Assembly: GCA_014874175.1 (NCBI GenBank)
Contig: JACWAD010000094.1
Coordinates: 3,158-67,157, forward strand
Origin: Thermoleophilia bacterium
GTDB taxonomy: Bacteria; Actinomycetota; Thermoleophilia; BMS3ABIN01
Direction: 5' to 3'
DNA: 64,000 bases
The position numbers and the translations under genes are program-made. Each line of letters begins with the position of its first letter. The stretch's first letter is position 1. This document shows positions 4,222-50,011 of the stretch, one piece after another. The notes under the pieces are model-generated. The model was not told the DNA's origin. It saw only the letters and a program-made list of their open reading frames with translations, and ran no database searches.

Positions 4222-4339
4222 CGATGGCGTCAGCGGATGAGGTCCGGGTTGAGGTTGACTTTGAGCATTGAATTGGCCTAGTGCGGGGGCAGGGCAATCA
4301 GCGGGGCGGCGAAAGTCTTTTCATGCCGGAGAGTGATAA

Positions 4340-22551: not shown

Positions 22552-22767
22552 CTTATCCTCCCTCTTTATATGCCATGCCCAACGGCGGCGATTTCAAACT
22601 CTTGTTGCTTATGGGACGGCTGCTGCCCCGTTCTTTTTATGCCAGGCAACCGGTTGACCTATGATCTGGGCGGCGAGGCTGGAAAAGGAAGTTCCCGGAT
22701 GAAGGCAAACGGGAAAAGAAACGAACAACCGGGCTTTTTTGTCTTAATAAGCCGGGCTGGGAAAAAC

Positions 22768-23940: not shown

Positions 23941-23947
23941 ACGACCT

Positions 23948-32685: not shown

Positions 32686-33120
32686 TCAAGCGTAAGGATA
32701 CAGCCTCCGCTTGAAATCATTTAGCTGGCTGACAAGCTTGTAGTGCTTGCGCTCATCTTCCAGCAGGTAGGAAAGCAGCTCGCGCACGACAAAGTGGCGG
32801 CTGTTTTCGAATTCCTCCGTAGCCAGTGAAATCGAGTCGCGCTCAATCCTGAGGTGATTTTCAAGCAGTGACGAGAGGCCGCCCAGCTCATCGGGCGCCA
32901 GGGTAATGGTGCCGTTTAGGGCGTCTTCTATCACCGCCAGGATCTCCTTGTGTTTGATCGAATCGGCTTTGATAACGCCGGCAATGGTCTTTACGAGCTT
33001 ATTATCCGTGGCGTCAATAAGAGCGTCGCACGACTCAATGGTCGTATCCTCTACCTGCTGCCATCTGCGGATTCCCTGCTCGAATGTGGTTTTTTCCTCG
33101 ACTATGCCTTCGATAGCCAT
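32686..33120 (-). CDS. ferritin-like four-helix-bundle protein (putative diiron, ExxH motifs)
   Basis: 144 aa; motifs ...SIKHKEIL... and ...EDERKHYKL... Confidence 0.45.
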   Translation of the reverse strand: MAIEGIVEEKTTFEQGIRRWQQVEDTTIESCDALIDATDNKLVKTIAGVIKADSIKHKEILAVIEDALNGTITLAPDELGGLSSLLENHLRIERDSISLATEEFENSRHFVVRELLSYLLEDERKHYKLVSQLNDFKRRLYPYA

Positions 33121-33158
33121 CTTGACCTCCCTCGGCTGTTTGCGCCTCTTCTCTGTTT

Positions 33159-33545
33159 TTAGAAATACCGTTTCAGCAAGTTGCGCAGCATCGCCGCGTG
33201 CCTGGCTTCATCATGAGCGGCCGTGTGCAGGTTGGAAGCAACCTGTTTCTGGCCGGCTGCCTCCGCTGTTTTCACGCCTTCATGCTTGCCCTCGTAAGCC
33301 TGCTCCTCGCCCGACAGCATCTTTTCAATTTCTTCCTTCAGGTCGCCGATGTTCCCTGCCAGGTACTTAAAACGGGAACCGTGCATGGCCTCATCCATGG
33401 CGATACTACGCAAAGTCTGCGCCACTTCAGTCATGCCTTCGTTGTCTGCTTTCAGGGCCATTGCCAGGTAATGGACCACCTCCCAGGTCTCGCCCTTGAT
33501 CTCGTTGCTGACGCATTCCTCAACCGTGGCTGTTTGCTCTGCCAT
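33159..33545 (-). CDS. rubrerythrin-like ferritin-domain protein (no rubredoxin domain)
   Basis: 128 aa; two ExxH motifs (DEAMHGSRF, DEARHAAML). Confidence 0.6.
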   Translation of the reverse strand: MAEQTATVEECVSNEIKGETWEVVHYLAMALKADNEGMTEVAQTLRSIAMDEAMHGSRFKYLAGNIGDLKEEIEKMLSGEEQAYEGKHEGVKTAEAAGQKQVASNLHTAAHDEARHAAMLRNLLKRYF

Positions 33546-35467: not shown

Positions 35468-36937
35468 TTAGCTGCCGATGATCTTTGCCACCGCGTCCTG
35501 GGCGGCGTTCAGGATTGGCGCCGGCAGCACGCCCAGGATGATCACCGCCGCCGTGGCCAGGCCCAGCCCCAGGCTGAGGTCCCAGGAGCGCCCGTCTGCC
35601 GGCTCCATGGCGGTCGCAACTTCATCGGAAGGCTCGCGCATGTACATATAGACGATCACCCGCAGGTAATAGAAGGCCGAGACGACGCTGAAGAGGACGC
35701 CGATCACGGCCAGCCAGGCGTATCCGGCGTCGACGACGCTGGCAAACAGGTAGAATTTTGCCAGGAAGCCGGCGGTGGGAGGGATGCCGGCCAGGGAAAA
35801 CATCAGCACGGCCATGACGCCGGCGGCGCCGGGGAAGCGGCGCGCCAGGCCTGCCATCTCGCCCAGGCTGTCGTTAAATCTGGCTGAGTTGGCGAGGAAA
35901 ACAAGCACGCCGAAGGCGCCCATGTTCATGGCGGCGTAGGCAGCCAGGTAGAAGAGGATGGCGGAGGAGCCAAAGCTGCTATGGCTCTGGCCGGCGGCGA
36001 TCATGGCCAGGAGAAGGTAGCCGACATGGGCAATGCTGGAGAAGGCCAGCATCCGCTTCAGATCGCGCTGCAAAAGCGCCATGGTGGCGCCAATCAGCAT
36101 GGTGGCGATGGCGATCGCGATCATCAGCGGCACCCAGCGGGCCTGCTCGCTGCCCAGCATTATTGTGAAAAACTTGATAATGGCGGCAAAAGCGGCGATT
36201 TTGGGGCCAACCGACAGGAACGCCGCCGCCGGGGTAGGGGCGCCCTGGTAGACGTCCGGCGCCCAGCCGTGGAAAGGGGCTGCCGCCACCTTGAAAGCGA
36301 AGCCGCCCAAAAGCAGTACGATGGCGATCACGAGCACGTGGCCGTCCAGTGATCCGGAACTGACAGCGGCGCTGATCTGTTGATAATTTGTGCTGCCGCT
36401 GAGGCCGTAAAGCAGCGCCATGCCAAAGAGCAGGATCGCCGAGGCAAACGAGCCGGTGAGGAAGTATTTCAGCGACGCCTCGATGCTGCGCTCGCGCCCG
36501 CGGAAGAAGCCGGCCAGCAGGTAGCTGCAGATGGCCATCAGCTCCAGGCCGACAAAGAAGGTGGCAAGATCAATGGCCGAGGCCATCACCATCATGCCGA
36601 CTGTCGCCAGCAGGATGAGGGCGTAGTAGTCGCCCAGCAGGCGCCCGCTCAAGGCCAGGTGTTTTTCCGAGAGCAGCATTGCCAGCACAGCCACCGCCAG
36701 CAGGAGAATCTTGAAGAAAACGGTAAACCTGTCCAGGGCGATGCCGTTCGAGAACGTGGAGAACTGCTCAGAGCGCGCCAGCCATACCGACGCAGCCGCC
36801 GGCAGGCAGGCCATGATTCCCAGCCAGCTTAATCCCCGCCGCCCTTCCGGCGGCAGAAACGGGTCGATTAAAAGCAGCACCAGCGCCGCCGCAACCAGCA
36901 TCAACTCCGGTACTATGGCGACGACGGCATGCTGCAT
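35468..36937 (-). CDS. nuoN: NADH-quinone oxidoreductase subunit N
   Basis: 489 aa polytopic antiporter-like subunit; last gene of the nuo operon. Confidence 0.9.
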   Translation of the reverse strand: MQHAVVAIVPELMLVAAALVLLLIDPFLPPEGRRGLSWLGIMACLPAAASVWLARSEQFSTFSNGIALDRFTVFFKILLLAVAVLAMLLSEKHLALSGRLLGDYYALILLATVGMMVMASAIDLATFFVGLELMAICSYLLAGFFRGRERSIEASLKYFLTGSFASAILLFGMALLYGLSGSTNYQQISAAVSSGSLDGHVLVIAIVLLLGGFAFKVAAAPFHGWAPDVYQGAPTPAAAFLSVGPKIAAFAAIIKFFTIMLGSEQARWVPLMIAIAIATMLIGATMALLQRDLKRMLAFSSIAHVGYLLLAMIAAGQSHSSFGSSAILFYLAAYAAMNMGAFGVLVFLANSARFNDSLGEMAGLARRFPGAAGVMAVLMFSLAGIPPTAGFLAKFYLFASVVDAGYAWLAVIGVLFSVVSAFYYLRVIVYMYMREPSDEVATAMEPADGRSWDLSLGLGLATAAVIILGVLPAPILNAAQDAVAKIIGS

Positions 36938-38503
36938 CTAGTGGCCACCTCCAAGGGAGGCGAAAAACCGCGTCAGGAAGTCGCCGTGCTGGGCCAGGTA
37001 AGGACTCATGTGGTCGATCAGATGGCTTGCCGACGGGTGGATGATGTTAATGAAGGTGTCAGGGTAGGCTCCCACCCATACCGCCAGGCCTGCCAGAGGC
37101 GCCAGCGAGGCGATCTCGCGCAGACTCAGGTCTGACAGCCGGAACCATTTCTGATCACGGACTTCGGCAAACATTACCCGCAGGTACATCCAGAGCAGGT
37201 ACGCGGCCGCCAGAATGACGCCGGCGGCGGCCACAACCGCCATCGCCTTGTTGTAGGTGAACAGTCCCAGAAGGCTGAGAAACTCGCCCACAAAACCGGA
37301 AAGCCCCGGCAGGCCCAGCGAGCCCAGGGTGAAGAAAAGCAAGAAGGCGGCCATCACCGGGAATGGCGTGGCCAGGCCGCCCATGGCGGAGATCTCGCGT
37401 GTATGCAGGCGCTCGTACATGAAGCCGACCATCAGGAACAGCGCCCCGGTCAGCAGGCCGTGGCTGAACATCACCAGCAGCGCTCCCTCCAGGCCGATCA
37501 CGGTGAAGGCAAAGATCCCGCCTGTGACAAAGCCCATGTGGCTGACGCTGGAGTAGGCGACCAGCTTCTTTAAATCTTTTTGCACCAGGGAGACCAGGGC
37601 TCCATAGATGATGGCAATTATTGACAGAATGAGGATATAAGGTATAGCAGTCACGACTGCGTCCGGGAAAAGCGGTATACAGAAGCGAATGATGCCGTAG
37701 CCGCCCATCTTCAGCAGCACGCCGGCGAGGATGACGCTGCCCGCGGTGGGAGCCTCGACGTGCGCATCCGGAAGCCAGGTGTGCAGCGGCCACATAGGCA
37801 CCTTGATGGCAAAGGCGATAAAGAAAGCCAGAAAGGCCGCCATCTGCACCGGGAAGGAAAAGACGGCGTGCTGGAGCTGGTCCAGGTCGAAGACCGGGGC
37901 CGCGTACTGGTCCGGCCGCGCCAGGTAGGCGATGCCGACGATGGCGACCAGCATCAGAACGCTGCCGGCCATCGTAAAGAGGAAAAACTTGAGAGCCGCA
38001 TAGACGCGGCGGGGACCGCCCCAAACGCCGATGATGAAATACATCGGGATCAGCATGATCTCCCAGAAAACGTAGAAAAGAAGGAGGTCGCGGGCGCAGA
38101 AGGTGCCGATCATGCCGGTCTCCAGGAACAGGAACGAGGCAAAAAAGCCAAGCTCGCGGTCCTTGATGTAGTTCCAGGATGCCGGGATGATGATAAGGGA
38201 AAGCAGGGTTGTCAAAAGGATAAGCAGGACGCTGATGCCGTCCACGCCCATGTGGTAACTGGCGCCAATCCGCTGGATCCAGTTTACTTTTTCGATGAAC
38301 TGAAAGTCAGCGGTGTACTGGTCGAATTTCCAGAGCATCATGAGGGAGAGGACGAAGGTGGCGGCCGTCGCCGCCAGGGCCGCGCTCTTGTAAAGGCGGG
38401 GCCGGCCGCGCATGAACAGGAGCATCACGACCCCCCCCAGGGTAGGCAGGAAGGTCATGACGCTCAAAATCGGAAAGCCGATCTGGGATTGGAAAGAATA
38501 CAT
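36938..38503 (-). CDS. nuoM: NADH-quinone oxidoreductase subunit M
   Basis: 521 aa antiporter-like subunit. Confidence 0.9.
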   Translation of the reverse strand: MYSFQSQIGFPILSVMTFLPTLGGVVMLLFMRGRPRLYKSAALAATAATFVLSLMMLWKFDQYTADFQFIEKVNWIQRIGASYHMGVDGISVLLILLTTLLSLIIIPASWNYIKDRELGFFASFLFLETGMIGTFCARDLLLFYVFWEIMLIPMYFIIGVWGGPRRVYAALKFFLFTMAGSVLMLVAIVGIAYLARPDQYAAPVFDLDQLQHAVFSFPVQMAAFLAFFIAFAIKVPMWPLHTWLPDAHVEAPTAGSVILAGVLLKMGGYGIIRFCIPLFPDAVVTAIPYILILSIIAIIYGALVSLVQKDLKKLVAYSSVSHMGFVTGGIFAFTVIGLEGALLVMFSHGLLTGALFLMVGFMYERLHTREISAMGGLATPFPVMAAFLLFFTLGSLGLPGLSGFVGEFLSLLGLFTYNKAMAVVAAAGVILAAAYLLWMYLRVMFAEVRDQKWFRLSDLSLREIASLAPLAGLAVWVGAYPDTFINIIHPSASHLIDHMSPYLAQHGDFLTRFFASLGGGH

Positions 38504-38506
38504 TGT

Positions 38507-38880
38507 TTAACGTTTCACTGAATAGGTTTCATGATATCTATGGCCGCGTATTTTTGTTTCTTTCAGGTAATTCATAAAACCGTAAATTAACTCGCTGGTC
38601 GATTTCGCAACTAACTTCATTGATTTAAATTCATCTGCTGACAAATAGCCTTGATCATGTGCCACATATAATTGGGCCCTGACTTCACCTGCAGAGCCTT
38701 TAGCCAAAGATAGGAAATACAGAAGCTCCTTTGTTTCTCCTCTTTCAAAGCCCTCGGCAATATTGGCCATCACGGATAAGGAGGCTCTGCGTGTCTGATC
38801 TTTCAGGTTGAAATCTTTTGCAAACGCTCCTTTTACTTGATTGCGAATATACAGCCTTTGTCAACTCTCTCTTCAAATCG
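38507..38880 (-). pseudogene. degenerate 'four helix bundle protein' (TIGR02436 / 23S rRNA-intervening-sequence protein family) inserted between nuoL and nuoM; N-terminal half frameshifted
   Basis: Low-GC island. Intact C-terminal part ...SVMANIAEGFERGETKELLYFLSLAKGSAGEVRAQLYVAHDQGYLSADEF... The upstream helix (FEERVDKGCIFAIK*) is in another frame with stops. Confidence 0.55.
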
Positions 38881-38969: not shown

Positions 38970-40859
38970 TCAAAGCATTAAAAGTATGTAGACGATCATC
39001 AGCGCCAGCAGTCCCAGGAACATGGCGAACAGGTAGCCCTGTACTTTTCCCGCCTGGATCGGCCTCAGCAGCCGGCCGGCGCCCACCGACAGCCAGCCGG
39101 CGCCGTTGACAGCGCCGTCGATGACGCCGTCGTCGACGATGCGCCAGAGCCAGCCGGAGAAGCGGCGCAGGGGGTTGATAATAACGGCGAAATATATCTC
39201 GTCAACATAGTACTTGTTCAGGAGCAGGGGATAAAGGCGGCCGGCGCGCTTGCAGGCGGCCGCCGGCAGAAACGGGCAGCGCAGGTAAAAATGCCAGGCC
39301 AGCAGGATGCCGCCAATGCCCACCGCCGCGGAGATGGCCATAAGGCTCCCTGACAGAAAACTGAACTCGTGCGCCGGCGCCACAATGGCGGCGGCAAAGA
39401 CGCGGTGCAGGAAATGGTCGATGTGGCCGCCTTCGGGCGGAATGCCAAGCAGGAGCCCGGCCAGCACCGTTGGCACGGACAGCACGATCAGCGGCGCCGT
39501 CATCACCGGCGGCGACTCGTGAGCGTGCGCAAAAACCTTGGCGTCGCCGCGCGGCTCATTGTGGAAAGTCATGAATATCAGCCGGAAGGAATAAAAAGCG
39601 GTCAGGAAGACCGTAATCAGGGCCACGATCCAGAAGTACCAGTAGCCCTCGCTGAAAGCCCCGGAAAGGATGGCGTCCTTGCTGAAGAAGCCGGAGAGGC
39701 CGGGGAAACCGGAAAGGGCAAGGGCGCCGATGAAGAAAGTCCAGTAAGTTATCTTGATCTTCTTTTTCAGGCCGCCCATCTTGCGCATGTCCTGCTCGCC
39801 GCCGAGGGCATGGATCACCGATCCCGAGCAGAGGAAGAGCAGGCCCTTGAAGAAGCCGTGCGCCAGCAGGTGGAACATGGCCGCCGCCCAGGCGCCGACG
39901 CCTAGGGCCATAAACATGTAGCCGAGCTGGCTGACGGTGGAGTAGGCCAGCACCTTCTTGATGTCATTCTGGACCATGGCGATGCTGGCGGCGAAGATGG
40001 CGGTAAATGTTCCCACGGCGGCCACCACCAGCATGGCCGTGTGCGAGTGGGCGAACAGGGGGCTGGAGCGGGCCACCATATAGACGCCGGCGTTAACCAT
40101 GGTGGCGGCGTGAATCAGCGAGCTGACCGGCGTCGGGCCTTCCATCGCGTCCGGCAGCCAGACGTGAAGCGGGAACTGGGCGCTCTTGCCCACAGCGCCG
40201 GTAAAGAGGAGCAGGCAGATGGCGGTGACCATGCCGCCGCCGAGAGTGCCGGCGGCGGCGAAGACGCCGCTGTAGCTCAGCGTTCCCAGCGTCACGAAGA
40301 TGAGCATGATCCCCAGGCTGAAGCCAAAGTCGCCGACGCGGTTGACCAGGAAGGCTTTCATGCCCGCGTTGGAGGCGCTCAGGCGCGGGTACCAGAAGGC
40401 AATCAGCAGGTAGGAGCACAGGCCCACTGCCTCCCAGAAGACATAGAGGAGCAGGTAGTTGTTTGCCAGGACCAGCATGAACATCGAGAACATGAACAGG
40501 TTGATGTAGGCGAAGAAGCGGTAGTAGCCCTTGTCGCCGTGCATGTAGCCGATCGAGTAGATGTGCACCATCAGGCCGACCGTGGACACGACCAGCAGCA
40601 TGATGGCGGTCAGCTCATCGACCAGAAAGCCTATGTCAACATGGAACTTGCCGGCGGCAATCCAGGTATACAACTGCCAGGAGAGAGTCTGGCCGCGCTC
40701 GACCTGGATAAAGACATACATGGACAGGGCCCAGCTTAAGGCGACCGAGCCCACGGACAGGTAGTGGCTTTTCTCCCTGAAGTAGCGGCGCCCGAAGAAC
40801 CCCGTGATTATAAACGACGCCAGCGGTAGCAACGGTATGAGCAGAACGGCCGCTTTCAT
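38970..40859 (-). CDS. nuoL: NADH-quinone oxidoreductase subunit L
   Basis: 629 aa antiporter-like subunit with a long C-terminal extension. Confidence 0.9.
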   Translation of the reverse strand: MKAAVLLIPLLPLASFIITGFFGRRYFREKSHYLSVGSVALSWALSMYVFIQVERGQTLSWQLYTWIAAGKFHVDIGFLVDELTAIMLLVVSTVGLMVHIYSIGYMHGDKGYYRFFAYINLFMFSMFMLVLANNYLLLYVFWEAVGLCSYLLIAFWYPRLSASNAGMKAFLVNRVGDFGFSLGIMLIFVTLGTLSYSGVFAAAGTLGGGMVTAICLLLFTGAVGKSAQFPLHVWLPDAMEGPTPVSSLIHAATMVNAGVYMVARSSPLFAHSHTAMLVVAAVGTFTAIFAASIAMVQNDIKKVLAYSTVSQLGYMFMALGVGAWAAAMFHLLAHGFFKGLLFLCSGSVIHALGGEQDMRKMGGLKKKIKITYWTFFIGALALSGFPGLSGFFSKDAILSGAFSEGYWYFWIVALITVFLTAFYSFRLIFMTFHNEPRGDAKVFAHAHESPPVMTAPLIVLSVPTVLAGLLLGIPPEGGHIDHFLHRVFAAAIVAPAHEFSFLSGSLMAISAAVGIGGILLAWHFYLRCPFLPAAACKRAGRLYPLLLNKYYVDEIYFAVIINPLRRFSGWLWRIVDDGVIDGAVNGAGWLSVGAGRLLRPIQAGKVQGYLFAMFLGLLALMIVYILLML

Positions 40860-40926: not shown

Positions 40927-41235
40927 TCATCCCTTCATCTCATCCAGCTCATCTACATCAAGCCTCTCGCGCAGGCGGAACATGGCGATGCCGATCGCCA
41001 GCCCGACGGCGACCTCGGCGGCGGCAATGGCCAGCACAAAGAAGACGAAAGCCTCTCCCCGGCCTGCTCCCAGGTTGGCGTAATTTGAGAACGCCGCCAG
41101 GGCGATATTGACGGCGTTAAACATCAGCTCCAGGCACATCACCACCATGATGATGTTGCGCCGCGCCAGCACGCCCCAGGCGCCCACCGCGAAGAGGACG
41201 CCCGCCAGGACCAGGTAATGTTGCAGCGGCGTCAA
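40927..41235 (-). CDS. nuoK: NADH-quinone oxidoreductase subunit K
   Basis: 102 aa, 3 TM helices. Confidence 0.85.
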   Translation of the reverse strand: MTPLQHYLVLAGVLFAVGAWGVLARRNIIMVVMCLELMFNAVNIALAAFSNYANLGAGRGEAFVFFVLAIAAAEVAVGLAIGIAMFRLRERLDVDELDEMKG

Positions 41236-41729
41236 GGGCGCCGCTCCCGCCGGGCCAGCAAAACGGCGCCGACAATTGCCGCCAGCAGCACCAGCGACGC
41301 CAGCTCGAATGGAAATGCGTACTGGTTAAAAAGCAGGCGGGACAGATTGGCGGTGGCCGGATTCTTGGGACTGCTGCCGGCGTTGAACCTGGCGCTGCCA
41401 AGCACCAGGCCCAGCACAACGGCAAGAGCCGCCGCTGCGGGAAGCGCTGCCCAGGACTGGCGGTGGAAAAAGATGCCGACGGCGCCGCTGCGCCGGCGGG
41501 TGAGCATGATGGCAAACAGGATCAGGATTGATATGGCGCCCACATATATAAGAAGCTGCGACGCGGCCAGCAGCTCCGCATTCAGGGTAACAAACACGGC
41601 CGCCACCCCAGAGAAGCAGGCAATCATGGCCATAGCGCTGTAAATCAGGTTCTTAAGCGACACCATCAGCACGGCCGGAATGATGACCAGCGCCGCCACG
41701 ATGTAGAAAACTGGCGTGGAGAATTGCAT
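41232..41729 (-). CDS. nuoJ: NADH-quinone oxidoreductase subunit J
   Basis: 165 aa; 4 nt overlap with nuoK. Confidence 0.85.
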   Translation of the reverse strand: MQFSTPVFYIVAALVIIPAVLMVSLKNLIYSAMAMIACFSGVAAVFVTLNAELLAASQLLIYVGAISILILFAIMLTRRRSGAVGIFFHRQSWAALPAAAALAVVLGLVLGSARFNAGSSPKNPATANLSRLLFNQYAFPFELASLVLLAAIVGAVLLARRERRP

Positions 41730-44257
41730 TACTCGGGCTCCCCCTTTTTGTCCGCCGGCCCGGCCTGGGCGGAGCCGGCCCCGGGCTCCCGCGCCGCGGG
41801 ACGGCCGCTTCCGCTGTCGGGGACTGCCTTCTCTTCGGCGTGCACCTCTTTTTGATACTGCTTGGCGGCGTGGTCCTGGCCCGGGCTGGCGGCATGATCC
41901 TGCTGGAAAGTGCCTTCGGGACTAAGGTCCGGTCCGCGGGCCATCTCCAGCAGATTATAGCCAAGCTGCCCGTGCCCGGTCGTGGCCAGCTCGAAGGCGG
42001 GCGTGATCGCCAGCGACTCCACCGGGCAGACCTCGACGCAATCGGCGCAGAAAATGCAGCGGGACGTGTCCAGGCGCCAGTCCGCCAGCTGCCGTTCTTT
42101 CATAAAGAGCGCCCCGGTGGGGCAGATGGTGGCGCAGCGCCCGCAGGAGACGCAGTCGGTGTCATTGAGGGAGCGGTCAAAAGGCGGGGTGACGATGGCG
42201 TGCCGGGCGCGGTAGGCAAAATCGTAAACGCCGGCGCCGGTCTGGTGCTTGCAGACGCGGATGCAGCGGCCACAATCGATGCAGCGGTTGGGGTCGCGCT
42301 GGATGAAAGCATGAGTGGTGTCGCGCCCGTAAAGGTTTTGCTCGCCGGCAAAGCGGTTGCCCTCTTCCTTCACCAGCCCCGCCGCCAGGCTGTAACGCCT
42401 CAACTTGCAGGTCTCGACGCCCTCGCAGATGCACTGCAGGCAGCGGCGGCTTTCGGTGCCGGCGGCGTGCTCGGAAAATCCGCGGTCGATCTCAAGGAAA
42501 TTGCCCTCGCGTTCCTTCTCAGTCAGCTGGGGCGTCAGCTGCCGCTCTATCTTCTCTTCGCGGTAGGCAGGAATGGCAATCATCGGCGGTTTGTCAAAGG
42601 CGGGCAGGGCGGCTTCGTAAGCAGCCATGTCCTCCCCTTTCAGGAAAGCGTCCATGGCCCAAGCGGCCTTCTTGGCCCCGCCGATGGCTTCCACCACCGT
42701 CTTGGCGCCGGTGGCGCCGTCGCCGGCGGCAAACACCTGCGGCCGCCCCGTCTGGCAGGTCTTGGGATTGATCTCGATTGTCTGCCAGCGGGTGCAGATG
42801 ACCCCGCCTTCTTCAGGAAAGATATCGCATTCTTCCCTGGTCTTGACGTCCACATATTTCAGCTTGGGCAGCTGGCCGATTGCCGGGATGATCGTGTCAA
42901 CCCCGGTGAGATATTCCGAGCCGGCCACCGGCTGCGGGCGGCGGCGGCCGCTTTCATCGGGCTCGCCCAGCTCCATTTTCTGACAGACTATGCCGGTGAC
43001 GCGTCCGTCAGCGGCCTCGACTTTGACCGGCGCCGCCAGGAAAGTGAACTTGATGCCCTCCTCCATGGCGTCATGCACCTCGATCTGGTCGGCCGGCATC
43101 TCTTTCTGGGTGCGGCGGTAGATGACTGTCACCTCTTTGGCTCCCAGGCGCCTGGAGACGCGGGCGGCATCCATGGCCGAAAAACCGCCGCCGATGACCG
43201 CGACTCGGTCGCGAATATCGGGCGGATTTCCCATCGCCACATCGCGGAGGAACTCGACCACCGGCATTACGCCTTCCATGTCTTCGCCCTCAACCCGCAT
43301 CGAGCGGCTCTCATGGGCGCCTATTCCCAGGAAAACGGCGTCAAATCCCATCTCGCCGAGGAGATCGTCGAGGGAAAAATCAGGCCCGAGGGCCATGCCG
43401 GTTTTCATCTCGACGCCCATCGCCCAGAGCGGCTCCAGCTCGGCGTTTAAAACTTTTTTGGGAAGGCGGTACTCAGGAATGCCGTAGCGGAGCATGCCGC
43501 CGGTATCCGGGAGCGCCTCGAAGATGGTGACGGCATGGCCCCTGAGCGCCAGGTAGTAGGCGTTGGCCAGCCCGGCCGGCCCGGCGCCGATAACCGCCAC
43601 CCGCTTGCCGGTGGCAGGGGCGGGCCGCTCCGGTTTAAACCCCTTTTCGATGGCGACGTCTCCCACGAACCGGTGGCAGAGGCGGATGGAGATCGGCTCT
43701 TCTACCTCGCTGCGGCGGCAGGCGCTTTCGCAAGGATGCGGGCATACCCGGCCCACGACAGCCGGGAAGGGCAGGTTTTCTTTCAGCACCCGCTGCGACT
43801 CGTCATAATCGCGGTCGGCGATCAGGCCCAGGTAGGCAGGGATGTCAACATTGGTGGGGCAGCCGTACTTGCAAGGCGGCAGGCAGTAGGCGTTATGGTC
43901 GGACAGGAGCAGCTCCAGATAAGTCTTGCGCAGCCTCAGCACCCGCTCGCTGCCGGTGGTGATGGCCATGCCCCCCTTGACCCTGGTGGCGCAGGCGGGA
44001 AGCGGCTGCTCCTCTCCCTCGACCTCAACCACGCAGACGCGGCAGCCGCCAAACGGCTCCAGGCCCTTGACATGGCAGAGGTAAGGGATCTTGATCCTGG
44101 CGGATTTGGCCGCCTCCAGGATGGTGTCGCCCTCATGCGCTATTACAGCCTGTCCGTTAATTGTCAGGGTCACCGGGGCGCCGGCTCCGGAAATTCGCAC
44201 CGGCGGCAGGGTCTGCGGCTTGTCGCCTAACCCATCAGTCATGAATTTTAATTCCAA
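41729..44257 (-). CDS. fusion protein: N-terminal [2Fe-2S] NuoG-N-like domain + GltD/NfnB-like NAD(P)H:FAD oxidoreductase + two 4Fe-4S ferredoxin motifs + NuoI C-terminal half
   Basis: 842 aa. Residues ~55-80 LCHVKGLEPFGGCRVCVVEVEG ([2Fe-2S]). Residues ~165-200 VCPHPCESAC...LCHRF (GltD N-terminal cluster). GKRVAVIGAGPAGLANAYYLA...GGMLRYGIPEYRLPK (GltD FAD/NADPH). Residues ~725-775 DWRLDTSRCIFCADCVEVCPVESLAITPAFELA...GYNLLEMA (NuoI C-terminal half). TTG start in track; alternative ATG at 44242. Confidence 0.7.
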   Translation of the reverse strand: MELKFMTDGLGDKPQTLPPVRISGAGAPVTLTINGQAVIAHEGDTILEAAKSARIKIPYLCHVKGLEPFGGCRVCVVEVEGEEQPLPACATRVKGGMAITTGSERVLRLRKTYLELLLSDHNAYCLPPCKYGCPTNVDIPAYLGLIADRDYDESQRVLKENLPFPAVVGRVCPHPCESACRRSEVEEPISIRLCHRFVGDVAIEKGFKPERPAPATGKRVAVIGAGPAGLANAYYLALRGHAVTIFEALPDTGGMLRYGIPEYRLPKKVLNAELEPLWAMGVEMKTGMALGPDFSLDDLLGEMGFDAVFLGIGAHESRSMRVEGEDMEGVMPVVEFLRDVAMGNPPDIRDRVAVIGGGFSAMDAARVSRRLGAKEVTVIYRRTQKEMPADQIEVHDAMEEGIKFTFLAAPVKVEAADGRVTGIVCQKMELGEPDESGRRRPQPVAGSEYLTGVDTIIPAIGQLPKLKYVDVKTREECDIFPEEGGVICTRWQTIEINPKTCQTGRPQVFAAGDGATGAKTVVEAIGGAKKAAWAMDAFLKGEDMAAYEAALPAFDKPPMIAIPAYREEKIERQLTPQLTEKEREGNFLEIDRGFSEHAAGTESRRCLQCICEGVETCKLRRYSLAAGLVKEEGNRFAGEQNLYGRDTTHAFIQRDPNRCIDCGRCIRVCKHQTGAGVYDFAYRARHAIVTPPFDRSLNDTDCVSCGRCATICPTGALFMKERQLADWRLDTSRCIFCADCVEVCPVESLAITPAFELATTGHGQLGYNLLEMARGPDLSPEGTFQQDHAASPGQDHAAKQYQKEVHAEEKAVPDSGSGRPAAREPGAGSAQAGPADKKGEPE

Positions 44258-44306
44258 GTTTCAAGTTTCAAGTTCCCGGTTGGGCCGCAAGGTTGTGCGC
44301 CCCAAC

Positions 44307-46121
44307 TCATTCTCCGCACTTCCCGACGCGGCAGCGCCCCTCGGCGGCATGCTCGAGGAACTCGTCCCGGAAAAACTTCAGGCCGGTGAGAAGCGGCCTG
44401 ACAGCGCCGCGGCCGAGGCCGCAGAGAGCTCCCGCCTTAATGTCCGCCGCCAGCGCCTCGGCAAGCTCCAGGTCCGCCTCGCTTCCCTCTCCCGAGCAAA
44501 TTCTTTCAACTATGTCAAGGAGGCGCCAGGTGCCAAGGCGGCAGGGCACGCACTTGCCGCATGACTCGCCGGAAGCAAAGGCAAGGCACTGCCTGACCAT
44601 GTCCACGATGCATTCATCCTGGCCCAGAATCCTGATAGTGCCTGAGCTCAAATCTCCGCCTGTCTCCCGGATTGAATCAAAGTCAAGCGGAATGTCAAAA
44701 AGGCCGGGCGAGAGGAAGCCGCCCCAGACGCTGCCAACGAGGGCCGCCCTGGGCTCGCTGATGAAGCCGCCTGCTTCCGTGGCGACGAGTTTTTTCAGGC
44801 TGGTGTCCAGCGTGGCCTCGTAGAGACCGGGACTCTCCACTGCTCCCAGCAGGGTGAAAAGCTTGGTGCCGGGGGCGTGCTCCGCCCCCAGTTGCCGGAA
44901 GGCGCCGGCGCCGCTTGAGATAATCCAGGGCACGGTTGCCAGCGTCTCCACGTTTTCCACTACTGTCGGCATCCCCCTGAGGCCTTTTTCAGCCGGGTAG
45001 GGAGGCCGCACGCCCGGCATGGGCCGCCTGCCTTCCAGGGTGGCGATAAGAGCTGTTTCCTCGCCCCCGACAGGCGCGCGCGGCACTTCGATTACTCGAA
45101 TGGAAAAAGAAAAGTCCGTTCCCGGCAGTTCCTCTTCCAGCAAGCCGTTGCCGGCAGCCTGCCCCACCGCCCGTCTGATCCTCTCGGCGGCAAGCTGGTT
45201 CTCGGCGGTGAGATAAATGATGCCCTCCCTGGCTCCCGCCGCGTAACCGGCCACGATCATGCCCTCGATGACCGCGTGCGGATTTTCCTCGAGGATGACG
45301 CGGTCCTTGATAGACCCGGGATCGCCCTCCTCGCCGTTGCAGATGATGAATTTCTTGGCCGCCTTTTGCCGGGCGGCCACCTGCCACTTGCGCCCGGTGG
45401 GGAAGCCGGAGCCGCTCCGTCCCCTGAGGCCGCTTACCGCGATCTCGTCAACGACCTCTGCCGGCGCCATCTCCGTAAGCGCCTTGGTGACGGCTTTGTA
45501 GCCGCCGGCGCCGGTGTAGTCTTTGATGCTCTCGGGGTCGACCTTGCCGACGTTTCCCAGCAGGATGGGGGGGCAGCCGGCGGCCGTCACCCGCGCGGGT
45601 GGCTCCTGGCGCTCCGGCCCCAGCTGAGGCGCGCCCGGCCCCAGTTGGTCATAGAAAGTGGCGACGCCAAAGACCTGGCTCAGCCAGACGCCGCTCTTTA
45701 AAGCGGTGGCGGCAAGCTCGTCTTCGCTCAGCTCCCCGGCAGCGAGCAGGGAGCTGGCCAGGCAGCCGTAGCGGCCGGGCGCGGCCTGCCCTGGTTCACC
45801 GGTTGGCCAGGGCGGCATCGCCACCGCCTTTTCGCCACGGTTCAAGAATGAGAGCATCGGGCCGGCGCCGGCGTCAAAGCGCCATACCTTCTCCGGCCGC
45901 TTTTCATCATAAATAATCTTGATAGCAACGGCGGGGCAGACCTGCTCGCAGAAAGTGCAGGCGATGCAGCGCGGCGTGGCGGCGTCGTCCTTCAGGCGCA
46001 GACGGATCAGCCCCCGGCTGCGCAGCGGCAGCTGGCGGCGCACCTCGGGATACTGCACCGTCACTTTCTTGCGGAAGAGGTGCGCCCCCGTTATCTTCAG
46101 GCCTTTGAGTAATCCGATCAT
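44307..46121 (-). CDS. fusion protein: NuoI N-terminal half (first 4Fe-4S motif) + degenerate NuoE-like linker + NuoF-like NADH/FMN/[4Fe-4S] domain
   Basis: 604 aa. N-terminus MIGLLKGLKITGAHLFRKKVTVQYPEVRRQLPLRSRGLIRLRL...CIACTFCEQVCPAVAI (NuoI). ...GVATFYDQ (NuoE-like). GLRGRSGSGFPTGRKW and SGESCGKCVPCR (NuoF). Confidence 0.7.
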   Translation of the reverse strand: MIGLLKGLKITGAHLFRKKVTVQYPEVRRQLPLRSRGLIRLRLKDDAATPRCIACTFCEQVCPAVAIKIIYDEKRPEKVWRFDAGAGPMLSFLNRGEKAVAMPPWPTGEPGQAAPGRYGCLASSLLAAGELSEDELAATALKSGVWLSQVFGVATFYDQLGPGAPQLGPERQEPPARVTAAGCPPILLGNVGKVDPESIKDYTGAGGYKAVTKALTEMAPAEVVDEIAVSGLRGRSGSGFPTGRKWQVAARQKAAKKFIICNGEEGDPGSIKDRVILEENPHAVIEGMIVAGYAAGAREGIIYLTAENQLAAERIRRAVGQAAGNGLLEEELPGTDFSFSIRVIEVPRAPVGGEETALIATLEGRRPMPGVRPPYPAEKGLRGMPTVVENVETLATVPWIISSGAGAFRQLGAEHAPGTKLFTLLGAVESPGLYEATLDTSLKKLVATEAGGFISEPRAALVGSVWGGFLSPGLFDIPLDFDSIRETGGDLSSGTIRILGQDECIVDMVRQCLAFASGESCGKCVPCRLGTWRLLDIVERICSGEGSEADLELAEALAADIKAGALCGLGRGAVRPLLTGLKFFRDEFLEHAAEGRCRVGKCGE

Positions 46122-46153: not shown

Positions 46154-47266
46154 TCACCCCTCTGCTTGGCTCAGGGCAAGAGTTGTTTTTCTCCCGACCC
46201 GTTTGCGCAGCAGCGCTCTTCGCAGCACCGGCCGGAACAGCAGGATGATCGCGATCACCGACGCCCAACTGAACGCCGCCACCGGCGGCAGAAAATTGTC
46301 CGGCAGCAGGATGATGAGCAGGCCGGTCACGCCCAGGTTCACCAAGCTGAGCGGGATCAGCACCTTCCAAGCAAAATTCATCAGCTGATCAACCTGGAGC
46401 CGCGGAAACGTGGCAAGGAACCAGATGACGACAAAGGCCAGCGCCAGCACCTTGAGAATCAGCCAGCCGGGACTGCCCGCAAAGGGTCCGCGCCAGCCGC
46501 CCAGGAACAGGGTGGCGCCTGTCAGCGACCAGATTGACGCGTTGCCCCATTCTACCAGGCCGTAAAAGAAGCCAAAGCGCATGCCGCTGTACTCGGTCAG
46601 GTAGCCGGCCACTAGCTCCGATTCCGCCTCGGGCAGGTCAAAAGGGGTGCGGTTAAGCTCAGCCATGCCGGCGATGATGAAGACGAGGAAAGCCAGCGGC
46701 TGTACGGCGATGTACCAGATTTTCCCCTGGGCGCCAACGACGTCGTTGAGGCTGAGGGAGCCCACTAGCATGGCGATGATAATGATGTTGAGGATCATCG
46801 GAACCTCGTAGGAGACCATCTGCGCCACTGACCGGAGGCCGCCCAGGAGCGAATATTTGTTATGCGACGCCCAGCCGGCCAGCAGGATGCCGAGCACCGT
46901 GAAAGAGCTGAAGGCAACAATAAAAACGAGCCCCACGTTCAGGTTGGCAATGGTGAAGCCTTTGCTGAAAGGAATTACGGTCACCGCCAGCACCGGCGTG
47001 ATAAATGCGACAGCCGGCGCCAGCCTGAACAGCAGCCGGTCTGCCTTCAGCGGCGCCACGTCTTCCTTCAACAGCAGCTTCAGAAAGTCCGCAATCGGCT
47101 GGAAGAAGCCCTGGGGGCCGACGCGGTTGGGGCCGAGGCGGTCACTGATGAAGCCCGATAGGCGGCGCACGGCGAACGGAAGCACCAGGGCGCTGAGAGC
47201 CGGCACCGCCAGCCCGATCACCAGCGCCGCAATCAAGTGGATGATGAAAGACGCGCCCCAGCTCAC
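46154..47266 (-). CDS. nuoH: NADH-quinone oxidoreductase subunit H
   Basis: 370 aa, 8 TM helices; NuoH motifs. Confidence 0.9.
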   Translation of the reverse strand: MSWGASFIIHLIAALVIGLAVPALSALVLPFAVRRLSGFISDRLGPNRVGPQGFFQPIADFLKLLLKEDVAPLKADRLLFRLAPAVAFITPVLAVTVIPFSKGFTIANLNVGLVFIVAFSSFTVLGILLAGWASHNKYSLLGGLRSVAQMVSYEVPMILNIIIIAMLVGSLSLNDVVGAQGKIWYIAVQPLAFLVFIIAGMAELNRTPFDLPEAESELVAGYLTEYSGMRFGFFYGLVEWGNASIWSLTGATLFLGGWRGPFAGSPGWLILKVLALAFVVIWFLATFPRLQVDQLMNFAWKVLIPLSLVNLGVTGLLIILLPDNFLPPVAAFSWASVIAIILLFRPVLRRALLRKRVGRKTTLALSQAEG

Positions 47267-48342
47267 CGGTCAACCGCCCCCATGATCAGGTCGAGGCTGC
47301 CGGCGATGCCGACAACGTCGGCGACTTTGTTGCCCGGCAGGATTTTTGGCATCGTTGACAGGGCGACGAAACAGGAATCGCGCATCTTCAGCCGGTAAGG
47401 CCGCAGCGATCCATCGGAGACAAGGTAGTTGCCCCACTCGCCGCGGCCGGTCTCCACGGCGCGGTAGATCTCTCCCGCCGGCGGCCTCAGCATGGGCGGC
47501 ACCCGCATGTTGACCGGGCCGCCCGGCAGGGCGTCCAGAGCCTGCTCGATTATGCGCACCGACTGGCGCAGTTCCTCGATGCGGCACTTGTACCTGTCAA
47601 AGCTGTCGCCGTTGACGCCGACAGGGATGTCAAAATCAAGCTGGGGGTAAACCGAATAGGAGTCGTGCCGCCTGAGGTCCATCGCCACGCCCGAGGCGCG
47701 CAGGTTGGGCCCCGAGAGGCCGAAGTCGAGCGCCTGCCCGGCGCTGATGACCCCCATCCCCAGCGACCGCGCCAGGAAGATCTCGTTGCCGGAGATCAGC
47801 TCTTCGTACTCGTCGATCCTGGCCGGGAACCGTTTCAGAAACTGGCGGCACTGCTCCTCGAAGCCGTCCGGGAGGTCGTAACGCACTCCGCCGGCGCGGG
47901 CGTAGTTGTACATCATCCGCTGTCCCGTCAGCAATTCCAGCAGATCAATGACATCTTCGCGGTCGCGGAAAGTCCATAGCACCGGCGTCAGTGCGCCCAG
48001 GTTGAGCAGGTAGTCGCCGATGGCCATGTGATGGCTGATGATGCGGTTCAGCTCGCCAGCGATCACGCGCAGGTATTCGGCCCGCGGGGGCGGCTCGATT
48101 TCCATCAGCCCTTCAATGCAGCGCACGTAGGCCCATTCCATGAAAAAGCCGGCCAGGTAGTCCAGCCGGCTGAGCATGGAGAAGAACTGCAGGTAAGTGC
48201 GGTTCTCTGCCAGCTTCTCGAAGCCGCGGTGCAGGTAGCCGATGCTGGGATCAACGCTGACGACCATTTCGCCGTCGAGGCGCAGCACCAGCCTGAGGAC
48301 GCCGTGTGCAGACGGGTGCTGGGGGCCCATGTTTAAAACCAT
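47263..48342 (-). CDS. nuoD: NADH-quinone oxidoreductase subunit D (49 kDa)
   Basis: ...MVLNMGPQHPSAHGVLRLVLRLDGE...; the track ORF runs to 48555 but the upstream 70 codons are low-complexity spacer. Start assigned to the ATG at 48342 (uncertain; a TTG ~38 codons upstream is possible). Confidence 0.8.
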   Translation of the reverse strand: MVLNMGPQHPSAHGVLRLVLRLDGEMVVSVDPSIGYLHRGFEKLAENRTYLQFFSMLSRLDYLAGFFMEWAYVRCIEGLMEIEPPPRAEYLRVIAGELNRIISHHMAIGDYLLNLGALTPVLWTFRDREDVIDLLELLTGQRMMYNYARAGGVRYDLPDGFEEQCRQFLKRFPARIDEYEELISGNEIFLARSLGMGVISAGQALDFGLSGPNLRASGVAMDLRRHDSYSVYPQLDFDIPVGVNGDSFDRYKCRIEELRQSVRIIEQALDALPGGPVNMRVPPMLRPPAGEIYRAVETGRGEWGNYLVSDGSLRPYRLKMRDSCFVALSTMPKILPGNKVADVVGIAGSLDLIMGAVDR

Positions 48343-48493
48343 CTCTTCTAAATGGAGGTCCGGTTGATCGCGGCCTATGTCTGTTTCTTGAACGATTGTC
48401 TGACTCCCAAAATCAGTTTCTTGTTTCTGGTTTCCGGTTTCGCGTTCAAACTTCAAAACTCGAAGCCTGCAACTCGCAACTGGAAACCTGAAT

Positions 48494-49042
48494 TCATGAT
48501 CTCTCGCCCCGGTCGCCTTCCCCGGGGAGCCGGCGCGGCGCGGCGATGCCCTCAAACTGCCATTCCCGGCGCTGCTGCCGGTGCGGCCGGGCGTCCTTGC
48601 GCAGGGGATAGACGCCGTCTGCGCTTGTCGTCAGGATGCGGCGCAGATCCGGATGGCCTTCAAACTCTATACCGAGGAGGTCGTAGGTTTCCCGCTCGTG
48701 CCAGCCGGCGGTGCTCCAGACATCGGACACAGTCGGCGCCACGGGCTGTTCCCGGTCCAACTGCGCCCGCATTTCAGCCACAACGGGGTGGTTGACCGAG
48801 CGCAGAATATAGACGGCGTCCATCCTGTCCTTATAGTCAATGCCGCCGGCAAAACTCAGGTATCTGAAGGAAAGCTGCTTGTGGTCCCGCAGCTTTAAAG
48901 CCGCCTCATGCAGCTTGCCTGGCTCAAGCGCAATTACGATCCTGTCCGCTTCCAGGTAAACGTCCGTGGCCAGGCCGCCCAGCAGATGCTGGGCCAGTTC
49001 TGCTGCTTCTGCCTCGCCCAAGGCTGGGGACTCCGCGCTCAC
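48494..49042 (-). CDS. nuoC: NADH-quinone oxidoreductase subunit C (30 kDa)
   Basis: 182 aa; NuoC fold; different frame from nuoD (not a CD fusion). Confidence 0.85.
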
Positions 49043-49578
49043 TCTTCACCGCCGTCTGCATCGTACTGGACCATCGTGCCGGCCGCCAGCCGGCGCGCCA
49101 GGCCCACCTGTGACTGTTTGCGGATTTTTTCCTGCAACTGGCGCATGCCGTAGATGAGCGCCTCCGGGCGGGGCGGGCAGCCGGGAATGTAGATGTCAAC
49201 CGGCACCAGCAGGTCGGCCCCCTGGACCACGTTGTAGGAATCCCAAAACATGCCGCCGCCGCAGGCGCAGGCCCCCATCGCCACCACCCAGCGCGGCTCC
49301 GCCATCTGGTGGTAGAGGTGTACCAGCACGGGCGCCATCTTGTCGGTGATCGTGCCCGATACGATCATCACATCCGACTGCCTGGGGGTGGCCCGGAACA
49401 CCTCCATGCCGAAGCGGGCGATATCATGGCGCGGCATGGCGGTGGAGATCATCTCGATGGCGCAGCAGGCGAGCCCGTAAGTAAAGGGCCAGAGCGAGTT
49501 CAGCCGCGCCCAGTTAAACAGCGAGTCCGTGGCGGCTGTCACTATATTGGGATGCTCGAACCGCTCCAGGACTGACAT
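49039..49578 (-). CDS. nuoB: NADH-quinone oxidoreductase subunit B (20 kDa, N2 cluster)
   Basis: 179 aa; CCAIEM...GACACGGG...GCPPRP cysteine motifs. Confidence 0.9.
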
Positions 49579-49579
49579 G

Positions 49580-50011
49580 TCAGCTCCACTCCAGGGCGCC
49601 CTTGGCCCAGGCGTAGAGGAGCCCGAACAGGAGCACGGCGATAAAGATCATCATCTCGGCAAATCCTGTCTTTCCCAGGCTGCGGAAGACCAGCGCCCAT
49701 GGGTAGACAAAAACGGCTTCCACGTCAAAGATGACAAACAGGAGGGCGTAGATGTAATAGCGGACTGCGAACGGGGACCAGCTGTCGCCAACCAGCAGCT
49801 CGATGCCGCATTCGTAGGAGCTTAACTTCTCGGAATAGGGGTGGTAGCGTTGCAGCAGCCGCGATATGGCGAGGGTGGCAAAGACAAAGCCGGCGCCCAC
49901 AATCCCCAGGGCGACGACGTAAACGTAGCTTTGCGCATAATCAGGAGTCACTGCGGCTCCCGCGAAAAGCTGCACGGATTTGTGGCCCTCATTCCTGTAA
50001 GCATGTCGCAC
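49580..50011 (-). CDS. nuoA: NADH-quinone oxidoreductase subunit A
   Basis: 143 aa, 3 TM; YECG motif; first gene of the nuo operon. Confidence 0.85.

Follow-up and report, generated by a model that had tools for sequence, protein, structure and literature searches.

The 14-subunit complex I (NuoA-N/Nqo1-14, as in T. thermophilus, 4HEA) is encoded with a nuoE-F-G block between nuoD and nuoH, whereas the 11-subunit enzymes (Nuo11, cyanobacterial NDH-1, Fpo) are encoded in the order A-B-C-D-H-I-J-K-L-M-N without this block, have an intact NuoI (NdhI), and receive electrons from ferredoxin, F420H2 or unknown donors. Here, we describe a nuo operon of the second kind in which nuoI is divided between two genes. 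The operon lies on the minus strand of a 64,000-nucleotide stretch of DNA from a Thermoleophilia bacterium (assembly GCA_014874175.1, contig JACWAD010000094.1, positions 3,158 to 67,157), which we call the window. Genes X (44307..46121) and Y (41729..44257), located between nuoH and nuoJ, carry the N-terminal and the C-terminal half of NuoI, respectively, each fused to a flavoprotein module for pyridine nucleotides. The locus, from an uncultured actinobacterium, encodes a complex I whose NAD(P)H module is of an alternative kind and embedded in NuoI. We consider it rather likely that X and Y are the two subunits of a peripheral electron-input module descended from a soluble StnABC/NfnABC (Bfu-family) NADH/NADPH/ferredoxin transhydrogenase, and that this module entered nuoI of an 11-subunit-type complex I by insertion.

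The closest solved relatives of the inserted parts are StnABC of Sporomusa ovata (8oh5) and NfnABC/Nfn-Bfu (9bov, 9n5u). The two flavins of these soluble enzymes, flavin adenine dinucleotide (FAD) and flavin mononucleotide (FMN), are linked by the chain FAD-A7-A6-A3-A2-A1-B1-FMN, and a side branch of iron-sulfur (Fe-S) clusters, A2-A4-A5, has been described as a non-functional remnant (PMC11829005, PMC10482914). Structural and mutational work has placed the bifurcation site of Bfu enzymes at B1-FMN-C1, with the electrons leaving via B3/B4 to ferredoxin (PMC11829005, PMC10482914). The hinge of the Bfu B subunit holds a Zn site of three Cys and one His (PMC11829005). Lys170 of StnC, a non-Cys ligand of the FAD-proximal cluster, was reported to be strictly conserved.

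Flavoprotein modules of related kinds have been connected with complex I before. Schut et al. 2022 (PMC9304861) predicted confurcating Nuo-Bfu complexes in Geobacter, Deferribacteres, Planctomycetes and Nitrospirae, in which a Bfu-type module feeds a proton-pumping complex I as it may do here; however, BfuA of those complexes lacks the GltD domain, the full bifurcating BC core is kept, and the phyla are other ones, whereas the module in the window lies between nuoH and nuoJ, is fused to the NuoI halves and lacks the BC-core clusters. A split NuoI is not mentioned in that paper. The Mbx-like operons of Degli Esposti 2015 (PMC4758237) resemble our locus in having a GltD-type NAD(P)H flavoprotein at the NuoI position, joined to a membrane module like that of complex I. 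There, the GltD-related flavoprotein substitutes for NuoI in a sulfur/NADP-linked Mrp-type complex, whereas both NuoI halves, a quinone-type Q module and additionally a NuoF module are kept in the window. In term searches of two surveys, split or fused NuoI was not encountered (complex I survey of Moparthi and Hägerhäll 2011), nor was NuoI itself (complex I gene-content survey of Spero et al. 2015). An earlier note on this DNA, which held that the arrangement matched no known complex I, agrees with the searchable literature, where we found no account of a split, truncated or fused NuoI, although most subscription-journal papers lay outside the search and a prior description is possible.

Results

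The N-terminal half of NuoI forms residues 1-85 of X (45867..46121). This segment was matched by NCBIfam NuoI models, namely NF004538 (residues 3-75, E 1.8e-18, profile positions 15-85 of 162) and TIGR01971 (57.8 bits, positions 1-67), and by the solved NuoI/TYKY/Nqo9 chains of the PDB with E values down to 4e-14, covering residues 6-79 of Nqo9. It contains only one CxxCxxCxxxCP motif, C52-P63 (45933-45968). The C-terminal half is found in residues 717-775 of Y (41933..42109), which hold a motif of the same type, C734-P745 (42023-42058), followed by a FELA...L..LLE segment, and which start about 10 residues past the preceding C702..C712 motif of Y. The PDB matches of this part were NdhI (E 1.2e-13, Y ~719-776 on NdhI 88-145), TYKY (E 8e-10) and Nqo9 (E 7e-6, Y ~721-772 on Nqo9 85-136), and among the profiles it matched NF004537 (positions 101-186) and TIGR01971 (65 bits). 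X runs to just past the first cluster motif and Y resumes just before the second, so that the two genes cover residues 6-79 and 85-136 of Nqo9. The earlier note, which had placed the split between the two cluster motifs and had asked for a check of the terminal segments against NuoI profiles, was thus right in this respect.

The halves are complementary. When X1-79 and Y727-800 were rejoined, TIGR01971 aligned to them in a single stretch, at positions 1-117 of 121, with 110 bits, which is 3 bits short of the curated cutoff of 113.05. In an alignment with 50 canonical NuoI proteins (alignment A3), the rejoined halves were gap-free around all eight Cys, with a short inter-motif loop. AlphaFold2 modelled the rejoined X1-79 + Y727-776 (129 aa) with a predicted local distance difference test score (pLDDT) of 90.9 when given an alignment of 72 canonical NuoI proteins (alignment A4), and with an unusable pLDDT of 35 without an alignment. 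In a Foldseek search with the former model, the top 40 PDB matches were all NuoI/TYKY/NdhI chains, with template modelling (TM) scores of ~0.75 over all 129 residues, and the remaining top-50 matches were further NuoI chains and two chains of the homologous formate hydrogenlyase iron-sulfur subunit.

A short strand at the break deserves a separate remark. Residues 79-85 of X, VWRFDAG (45867-45887), resemble residues 726-732 of Y, DWRLDTS (42062-42082), and the canonical NuoI strand before motif 2, the likeness being weak (3/7 identical by inspection). The segment VWxLDAGAGPML of X is highly conserved in the Thermoleophilia clade, and in the NuoI(N)-NuoE proteins examined from other clades (P0142, L089) the first motif is not followed by such a strand. 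The strand may have been left over from the break in the Thermoleophilia clade.

The main part of X, residues 186-604 (44307..45566), is an FMN/NADH-binding NuoF-type core (PF01512 2.5e-39 and PF10589 3.8e-27, residues 186-602). It was more similar to the solved Bfu B subunits (9bov_B 427 bits, 8oh5_B 420 bits, for X 186-602) than to Thermus Nqo1 (315 bits). It carries the [4Fe-4S] (N3/B1) motif, of which C521, C524 and C567 are invariant in the family, while C527 (44541-44543), the third Cys of the CxxCxxC, is replaced by Asp in 6 and by Gly in 1 of 17 family members. These replacements suggest that the cluster may be Asp-ligated or held by three Cys in part of the family. C504, H591, C597 and C602 are also invariant and form a candidate 3Cys-1His Zn site: in the sequence alignment H591, C597 and C602 fall on the hinge of NfnB/StnB, and C504 is the candidate fourth ligand. 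X ends at residue 604, right after the hinge, where the Bfu B subunits begin their C-terminal 2x[4Fe-4S] ferredoxin domain. It thus possesses B1 and FMN and has neither the B3/B4 domain nor the thioredoxin-like B5 domain; the N-terminal side of the core is taken by NuoI(N) and a linker.

The linker, residues 86-185 of X (45567..45866), contains a remnant of about 30 residues at 129-160 ('...LSQVFGVATFYDQL', 45642-45737) that is similar to the helical N-terminal region of NuoE/HydC/NfnC. A family profile matched only HydC/NfnC/NuoE chains in the PDB (best E 0.0025), PF01257 was matched only at positions 27-66 and below its cutoff, and a genuine NuoE from a related locus (L089, see below) matched the remnant with E 1.8e-4 in tblastn. 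Since C120 is the sole invariant Cys of the linker, no [2Fe-2S] site (C1) is possible there. Therefore, of the NuoE-like and NuoF-like domains that the earlier note had seen in the middle of X, the NuoF core is real and the NuoE-like domain is reduced to the clusterless remnant.

Y begins with a NuoG/HydA-type [2Fe-2S] domain (residues 27-125, 43883..44179; PF13510, Fer2_4, E 1.6e-19), which aligns to the N-termini of StnC/NfnA. It is followed by a GltD/NfnB-type domain (residues 126-560, 42578..43882; PF14691, Fer4_20, and PF07992, Pyr_redox_2; NF009454 623 bits) with two [4Fe-4S] clusters, a GAGPAGL FAD site and an NADPH site, GGGFSAMD ... YRRT, of which the latter is the phosphate-binding motif. 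The next part, residues 561-716 (42110..42577), holds three [4Fe-4S] motifs, C606..C617, C659..C669 and C702..C712, that are homologous to the Fe-S chain of StnC/NfnA, as judged from PF22117 (Fer4_Nqo3) and from the alignment to 9bov_A and 8oh5_C. Altogether, Y 30-738 aligned to residues 5-696 of 9bov_A with E 3e-184, with the FAD, NADPH (YRRT) and Cys motifs conserved. This alignment to StnC/NfnA stops exactly at the start of their Fdh-like domain, and NuoI(C) is found in its place. H195 of Y (43673-43675) occupies the position of StnC K170, and is His in 66/68 of the matched Y-family proteins; this His is often preceded by Cys or Ser. Behind NuoI(C), Y ends in a variable tail (residues 776-842 and stop, 41729..41932) that is low-complexity, charged and Pro/Ala-rich, and whose length and sequence are not conserved among the orthologues with a complete Y. 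In current annotations X is named 'NuoF' or 'SLBB domain protein', and Y 'FAD-dependent oxidoreductase' or 'formate dehydrogenase major subunit'. The domain matches agree with the claim of the earlier note that the N-terminal half of NuoI is fused to an NADH/FMN module, and the C-terminal half to a [2Fe-2S]/GltD module for NADPH and FAD.

With StnABC/NfnABC, X shares a B-subunit core (X 186-602) whose alignment extends over the His/Cys residues of the Zn hinge. In Y, residues 29-725 align to StnC/NfnA, GltD is inserted behind the [2Fe-2S] domain as it is there, and the Fe-S motifs correspond. They differ from it by their position inside a nuo operon, by the lack of B5 and B3/B4 in X, by the shrinkage of StnA/NfnC to the clusterless 30-residue remnant, by the replacement of the Fdh-like domain of StnC/NfnA with NuoI(C), and by the change of K170 to His. 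An origin from NuoF and NuoG of complex I was considered and rejected because of the higher similarity to Bfu subunits and the shared GltD insertion point.

Each half of NuoI is fused in frame within its own gene. However, X and Y are two distinct open reading frames (ORFs) in different frames, so that the 'in-frame cassette' of the earlier note holds within each ORF and not across the pair, which is separated by a stop codon and a spacer. X (604 aa, ATG start, minus strand) ends with TGA at 44307-44309, and Y encodes 842 aa from TTG 44257, or 837 aa from ATG 44242, which is the start used by its database relatives. The spacer (44243..44306, ~50-65 nucleotides) contains about three copies of ACTTGAA just upstream of the Y start, and no obvious Shine-Dalgarno sequence was seen in it.

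No further NuoI-, NuoE-, NuoF-, NuoG- or GltD-like sequence was detected in the 64-kb window by tblastn with pieces of X and Y, and the genuine NuoE and the terminal domains of BfuB from L089, used as tblastn queries, revealed no additional NuoE gene and no B5 or B3/B4 domain there. The window thus has no intact nuoI and, neither in the operon nor in its remaining part, a separate nuoE, nuoF or nuoG. Taken together with the Pfam matches of the flanking genes, this bears out the 11-subunit-type order without nuoE, nuoF and nuoG that had been reported earlier; the two ORFs are present at the coordinates given in the earlier note, on the minus strand.

The arrangement is conserved far beyond the source genome. 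A search of ~5.8 billion proteins with X returned at least 53 clusters (at the 90% identity level) that cover X in full length with 57-100% identity, and was followed by a sharp drop in score, from 740 to 440 bits, where the ordinary HydB/NuoF proteins start. A scan of one genome per GTDB species revealed 18 loci, all in metagenome-assembled genomes (MAGs) classified as Thermoleophilia, Gaiellales or 'Actinomycetes', from sediment, groundwater and deep mines; the relatives include deep-subsurface and groundwater MAGs (DeMMO, SURF). The order nuoABCDH-X-Y-JKLMN was found in 13/13 loci whose contigs span the operon, with the identity of X as low as 57%, and the remaining, shorter contigs showed the same order as far as they reach, at minimum H-X-Y. 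X and Y are separate ORFs in every locus, often overlapping or in different frames. No canonical nuoI that could serve for comparison was found in loci L019-L079.

Both NuoI halves and all eight Cys are conserved at overall identities of 57-84%. NuoI(N) is the most conserved segment of X (35/85 columns invariant, as compared with 100/405 in the NuoF core), with all four motif Cys invariant, and the NuoI(C) motif CIFC[AG]DC[VI]E[VI]CP with the FELA segment that follows it is kept in every related locus with an intact Y C-terminus. Since 18 species-level Thermoleophilia/Gaiellales MAGs share the gene order, the arrangement is not an assembly artefact. A search of public genomes, proposed in the earlier note together with the caution that a mis-assembly at the junctions could undo its reading, has thus placed the split NuoI in a large Thermoleophilia/Chloroflexota family instead.

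The family is indeed larger than these loci. An exhaustive HMMER search of 1.84 billion representatives with X 1-130 found more proteins that start with a single-motif NuoI N-half fused to NuoE. In three of them, P0142 (251 aa), P0158 (253 aa) and P0266 (271 aa), the Cys pattern of the [2Fe-2S] cluster is present, and in P0189 (215 aa), from a named Chloroflexi MAG, only the helical remnant is left. The search with full-length Y gave at least 120 clusters at 694 bits or more, most of them of ~770-880 aa, with a few shorter partial entries. A motif test detected the NuoI(C) tail in at least 96/120 of the listed Y clusters, and 3 of the 24 that failed the regular expression showed the motif on inspection. 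The source names of the Y clusters include Thermoleophilia, 'Actinobacteria bacterium', Chloroflexota, Candidatus Limnocylindria and Ktedonobacterales.

The gene neighborhoods of these relatives differ in how the domains are divided. In L089, on a contig of 1.84 Mb, nuoABCDH is followed by I(N)-NuoE with the [2Fe-2S] cluster, by a complete BfuB (a thioredoxin-like domain, the NuoF core and the C-terminal dicluster ferredoxin), by Y and by nuoJKLMN. In L084, L085 and L086, nuoABCDH is followed by I(N)-NuoE, NuoF and a Y-like gene (793-799 aa, ending in NuoI(C)), with no nuoJ-N adjacent. The order in L080 is nuoH, I(N)-NuoE, thioredoxin-like-NuoF-GltD (1048 aa), HoxU-like + NuoI(C) (265 aa) and nuoJKLMN, so that the same parts are shared out differently among the chains: at 2076-5222 of this locus the thioredoxin-like [2Fe-2S] domain, NuoF and GltD form the one 1048-aa chain, and the NuoI C-half sits on the small HoxU-like protein. 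In the Ktedonobacterales-like locus L090, only nuoB precedes I(N)E'-F-Y, and protocatechuate dioxygenase genes adjoin. Either the membrane subunits that belong to L084-L086 and L090 have their genes at another place, or the module may function in other contexts too. The relatives of Y and of I(N)-NuoE identify the version in the window as a reduced, more fused member of a large family, whose fullest members, judged by their domains, look like an entire Stn/NfnABC operon sitting inside nuoI.

Outside X and Y, the operon has the order nuoA-B-C-D-H-X-Y-J-K-L-(small ORF)-M-N, with the small ORF as the sole intruder. All ten core subunits of the membrane and Q modules (NuoA, B, C, D, H, J, K, L, M and N) are encoded together on the minus strand, and every Pfam match exceeds the gathering score: nuoA (49580..50011, PF00507, E 2.1e-35; these are ORF limits, and the true start is probably later), nuoB (49039..49578, PF01058, E 5.9e-29), nuoC (48494..49042, PF00329, E 4.6e-34), nuoD (47263..48555, PF00346, E 7.9e-92; ORF limits, with homology beginning near 48400), nuoH (46154..47266, PF00146, E 2.7e-109), nuoJ (41232..41729, PF00499), nuoK (40927..41235, PF00420), nuoL (38970..40859, PF00361 and PF00662), nuoM (36938..38503, PF00361) and nuoN (35468..36937, PF00361).

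The quinone module looks canonical and, by its motifs, of the quinone type, with a NuoD that lacks the NiFe Cys. The translation of nuoB shows the tandem-Cys pattern GLACCAIEM ... GACA ... GCPP, and NuoD has the quinone-site motifs QHPSAHGV and IGYLHRGFEK in stretches that are kept in the alignment to NdhH and the 49 kDa subunit; going by Nqo4 and Nqo6, we take the NuoB Cys to be the ligands of N2 and the NuoD His and Tyr to be the quinone ligands. NuoD scored ~360-370 bits with NdhH, the 49 kDa subunit and Nqo4, as compared with 284 bits with NuoD of Mycobacterium smegmatis; no other actinobacterial complex I was among the solved structures that it matched. Like NuoD, whose best score was with cyanobacterial NdhH, the NuoI C-half scored best with its cyanobacterial counterpart, NdhI.

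The small ORF between nuoL and nuoM (38507-38773, minus strand, 88 aa; PF05635, E 9e-16) matches the C-terminal two thirds of the '23S rRNA-intervening sequence protein' four-helix-bundle family. The 2-kb bin that contains it has the lowest GC content in the operon (0.554). L003 has a homologue at the same place, which most other relatives lack there.

Elsewhere in the window, the genes of a histidine kinase and a sigma-54-dependent response regulator (receiver + Sigma54_activat + HTH_8) form a pair (11267-14187, minus strand); systems of the sigma-54 kind are uncommon in Actinomycetota. On the plus strand, a phosphoketolase (XFP) gene comes immediately after that of acetate kinase (22210-26341), an aldehyde dehydrogenase gene lies at 28917-30626, and rubrerythrin-like ORFs lie at 32686-33545, just downstream of nuoN. 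These genes hint at a fermentative or microaerotolerant heterotroph.

Discussion

The operon of the window shares with the 14-subunit complex I the ten subunits of the membrane and Q modules, the FMN/NADH site of NuoF type, the [2Fe-2S] domain of NuoG type, the pair of Cys motifs of NuoI type and, presumably, the path from flavin through the Fe-S chain, N6a/N6b and N2 to quinone. It differs in that its NuoI consists of two polypeptide segments on two proteins, the nuoE-F-G block is missing, and the N1a cluster and the molybdopterin-like C-terminal domain of NuoG are lacking. Moreover, it has an extra GltD FAD/NADPH domain with two clusters, and its flavoprotein parts are nearer to Bfu enzymes than to Nqo1/Nqo3, NuoG being represented only by the N-terminal Fe-S domains in Y. 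In contrast to the 11-subunit enzymes, with which it shares the gene order, it has a pyridine-nucleotide module built into NuoI.

These features can be joined in a working model. The N-half in X and the C-half in Y would fold into one NuoI-like 2x[4Fe-4S] domain. In the 2x[4Fe-4S] ferredoxin fold, each motif gives three Cys to one cluster and its last Cys to the other cluster, and N6a and N6b would both be ligated across the interface of X and Y. If the halves co-fold in this way, X and Y would therefore be an obligate pair docked at the position of NuoI, where the rebuilt domain would pin the module to NuoB, NuoD and NuoH. X would oxidise NADH at its FMN, Y would oxidise NADPH at the FAD of its GltD domain, and both flavins would feed the Fe-S chain of Y. 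In Y, the domain that holds the last cluster of the Stn/Nfn side branch is replaced by NuoI(C), and the branch that is a dead end in Stn/Nfn would plausibly become a wire through N6a/N6b to N2 in NuoB, and on to menaquinone at NuoD/NuoH, with NuoL, NuoM and NuoN pumping protons. Read from its domains, the enzyme is most likely a non-bifurcating, proton-pumping dual NADH/NADPH:menaquinone oxidoreductase, reversible in principle; we prefer the non-bifurcating reading because the [2Fe-2S] cluster of NuoE and the ferredoxin domain of Bfu are missing in the version of the window.

Several points weigh against this model. An ungated Fe-S wire between NADH and NADPH would tend to equilibrate the pyridine-nucleotide pools, which cells normally avoid, so that there may be gating or another direction of flow. 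L089 keeps the full set of Bfu features, and therefore ferredoxin and bifurcation may have belonged to the ancestral function; a partner of NuoE or ferredoxin type may also be encoded beyond the 64-kb window. The change of K170 to His and the Asp or Gly at the third Cys of N3/B1 in 7/17 family members imply that the properties of the clusters may differ from those in the solved enzymes. The model of the rejoined NuoI, being driven by the alignment of canonical NuoI proteins, shows compatibility and is no proof, and the Pfam matches additionally allow Y 702-747 to be read as a dicluster domain complete in itself.

The last point leads to an explanation in which there is no inter-chain NuoI at all: the C702.. 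and C734.. motifs of Y would form a 2x[4Fe-4S] ferredoxin of their own, and the NuoI start of X would be a single-cluster anchor to the membrane or NuoH. The Pfam dicluster models Fer4_7 and Fer4_21 do match Y 698-747, and TIGR01971 can align Y 694-768 to its positions 36-117, with two motifs 20 residues apart. However, in StnC/NfnA the C659 and C702 motifs share one domain, Y aligns to these proteins through ~725, and PF22117 covers Y 651-717; with C659 and C702 paired, exactly one unpaired motif is left in Y and one in X, and the two halves carry NuoI-specific flanks and jointly cover the NuoI model once without overlap. We therefore regard a self-contained ferredoxin in Y as very unlikely. 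That the locus is a mis-assembly, or a nuoI destroyed by an inserted operon and belonging to a non-functional complex, has a practically negligible probability: nothing but the unusual appearance of the locus speaks for it, and it is contradicted by 18 independent species-level assemblies and at least 53 protein clusters in which the halves and the eight Cys are conserved, and by related versions in a second phylum. For this reason, mis-assembly and a pseudogene were rejected as explanations.

With the inter-chain NuoI retained, the function of the module may still be read differently. As X and Y descend from the bifurcating StnABC/NfnABC family, the complex could be a membrane-bound Stn/Nfn, a true bifurcating or confurcating machine, that couples NADH and reduced ferredoxin, or NADPH, to quinone reduction, or that uses exergonic quinone reduction to drive the reduction of NADP+ or ferredoxin from NADH. 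The retention of the NuoE [2Fe-2S] cluster, B5 and the B3/B4 ferredoxin domain in L089 fits such a machine, as do the predicted confurcating Nuo-Bfu complexes (Schut et al. 2022, PMC9304861). For the locus in the window it is quite unlikely, given that C1, B5 and B3/B4 are found neither in X nor anywhere else in the window, that removal of the StnA cluster abolishes bifurcation in Stn (PMC10482914), and that the FAD of StnC-type subunits is described as non-bifurcating. An Nfn-like electron module, as put forward in the earlier note, is hence sustained as to ancestry, the best solved matches being 9bov, 8oh5 and 9n5u, and not as a bifurcating or confurcating device at this locus. Electrons might also run in reverse through the same architecture, with quinol and the proton-motive force reducing NAD+ and especially NADP+, which would make it a membrane-energised NADPH generator of a lithotroph or oligotroph. 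Complex I is reversible, biosynthesis could profit from reverse flow to a direct NADPH site, and the provenance of the deep-subsurface and groundwater (DeMMO, SURF) relatives would suit such a life. We consider reverse transport unlikely as the main role, as the window contains fermentative and heterotrophic genes (phosphoketolase, acetate kinase, aldehyde dehydrogenase); the direction is not fixed by any sequence feature, and reverse flow is compatible with the preferred reading of a non-bifurcating dual NADH/NADPH:menaquinone oxidoreductase.

A wider proposal goes beyond the window and is put forward here only tentatively. Across Thermoleophilia, other Actinomycetota and Chloroflexota, the family may constitute a class of complex I that is phylogenetically widespread and has gone unrecognised; a whole operon of StnABC/NfnABC type would have been inserted into nuoI of an 11-subunit ancestor. 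In this class, a pyridine-nucleotide N-module would have been gained independently of NuoEFG, N6a and N6b would lie between two chains, NADPH would be wired into the pump and, in relatives like L089, bifurcation would be physically coupled to the pump.

Conclusions

The earlier note was right about the architecture of this locus and about its ancestry. If the preferred reading is true, an NAD(P)H-oxidising head would have been added to complex I on at least two occasions and by different routes, of which the second would be a whole soluble transhydrogenase operon dropped into nuoI. The split NuoI would be a natural 2x[4Fe-4S] ferredoxin domain with clusters shared between chains, and thus a precedent for the assembly and engineering of Fe-S proteins, and the relatives with a full Bfu core would provide a test case for bifurcation coupled to a proton pump. 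It may also explain records of Chloroflexi that were scored as 'missing only NuoG', and hence as lacking complex I: according to the survey by Spero et al. 2015, many Chloroflexi have 13/14 subunits. Finally, NADPH would be a direct respiratory donor, or a product of reverse flow, in abundant lineages of soil, freshwater and the subsurface.

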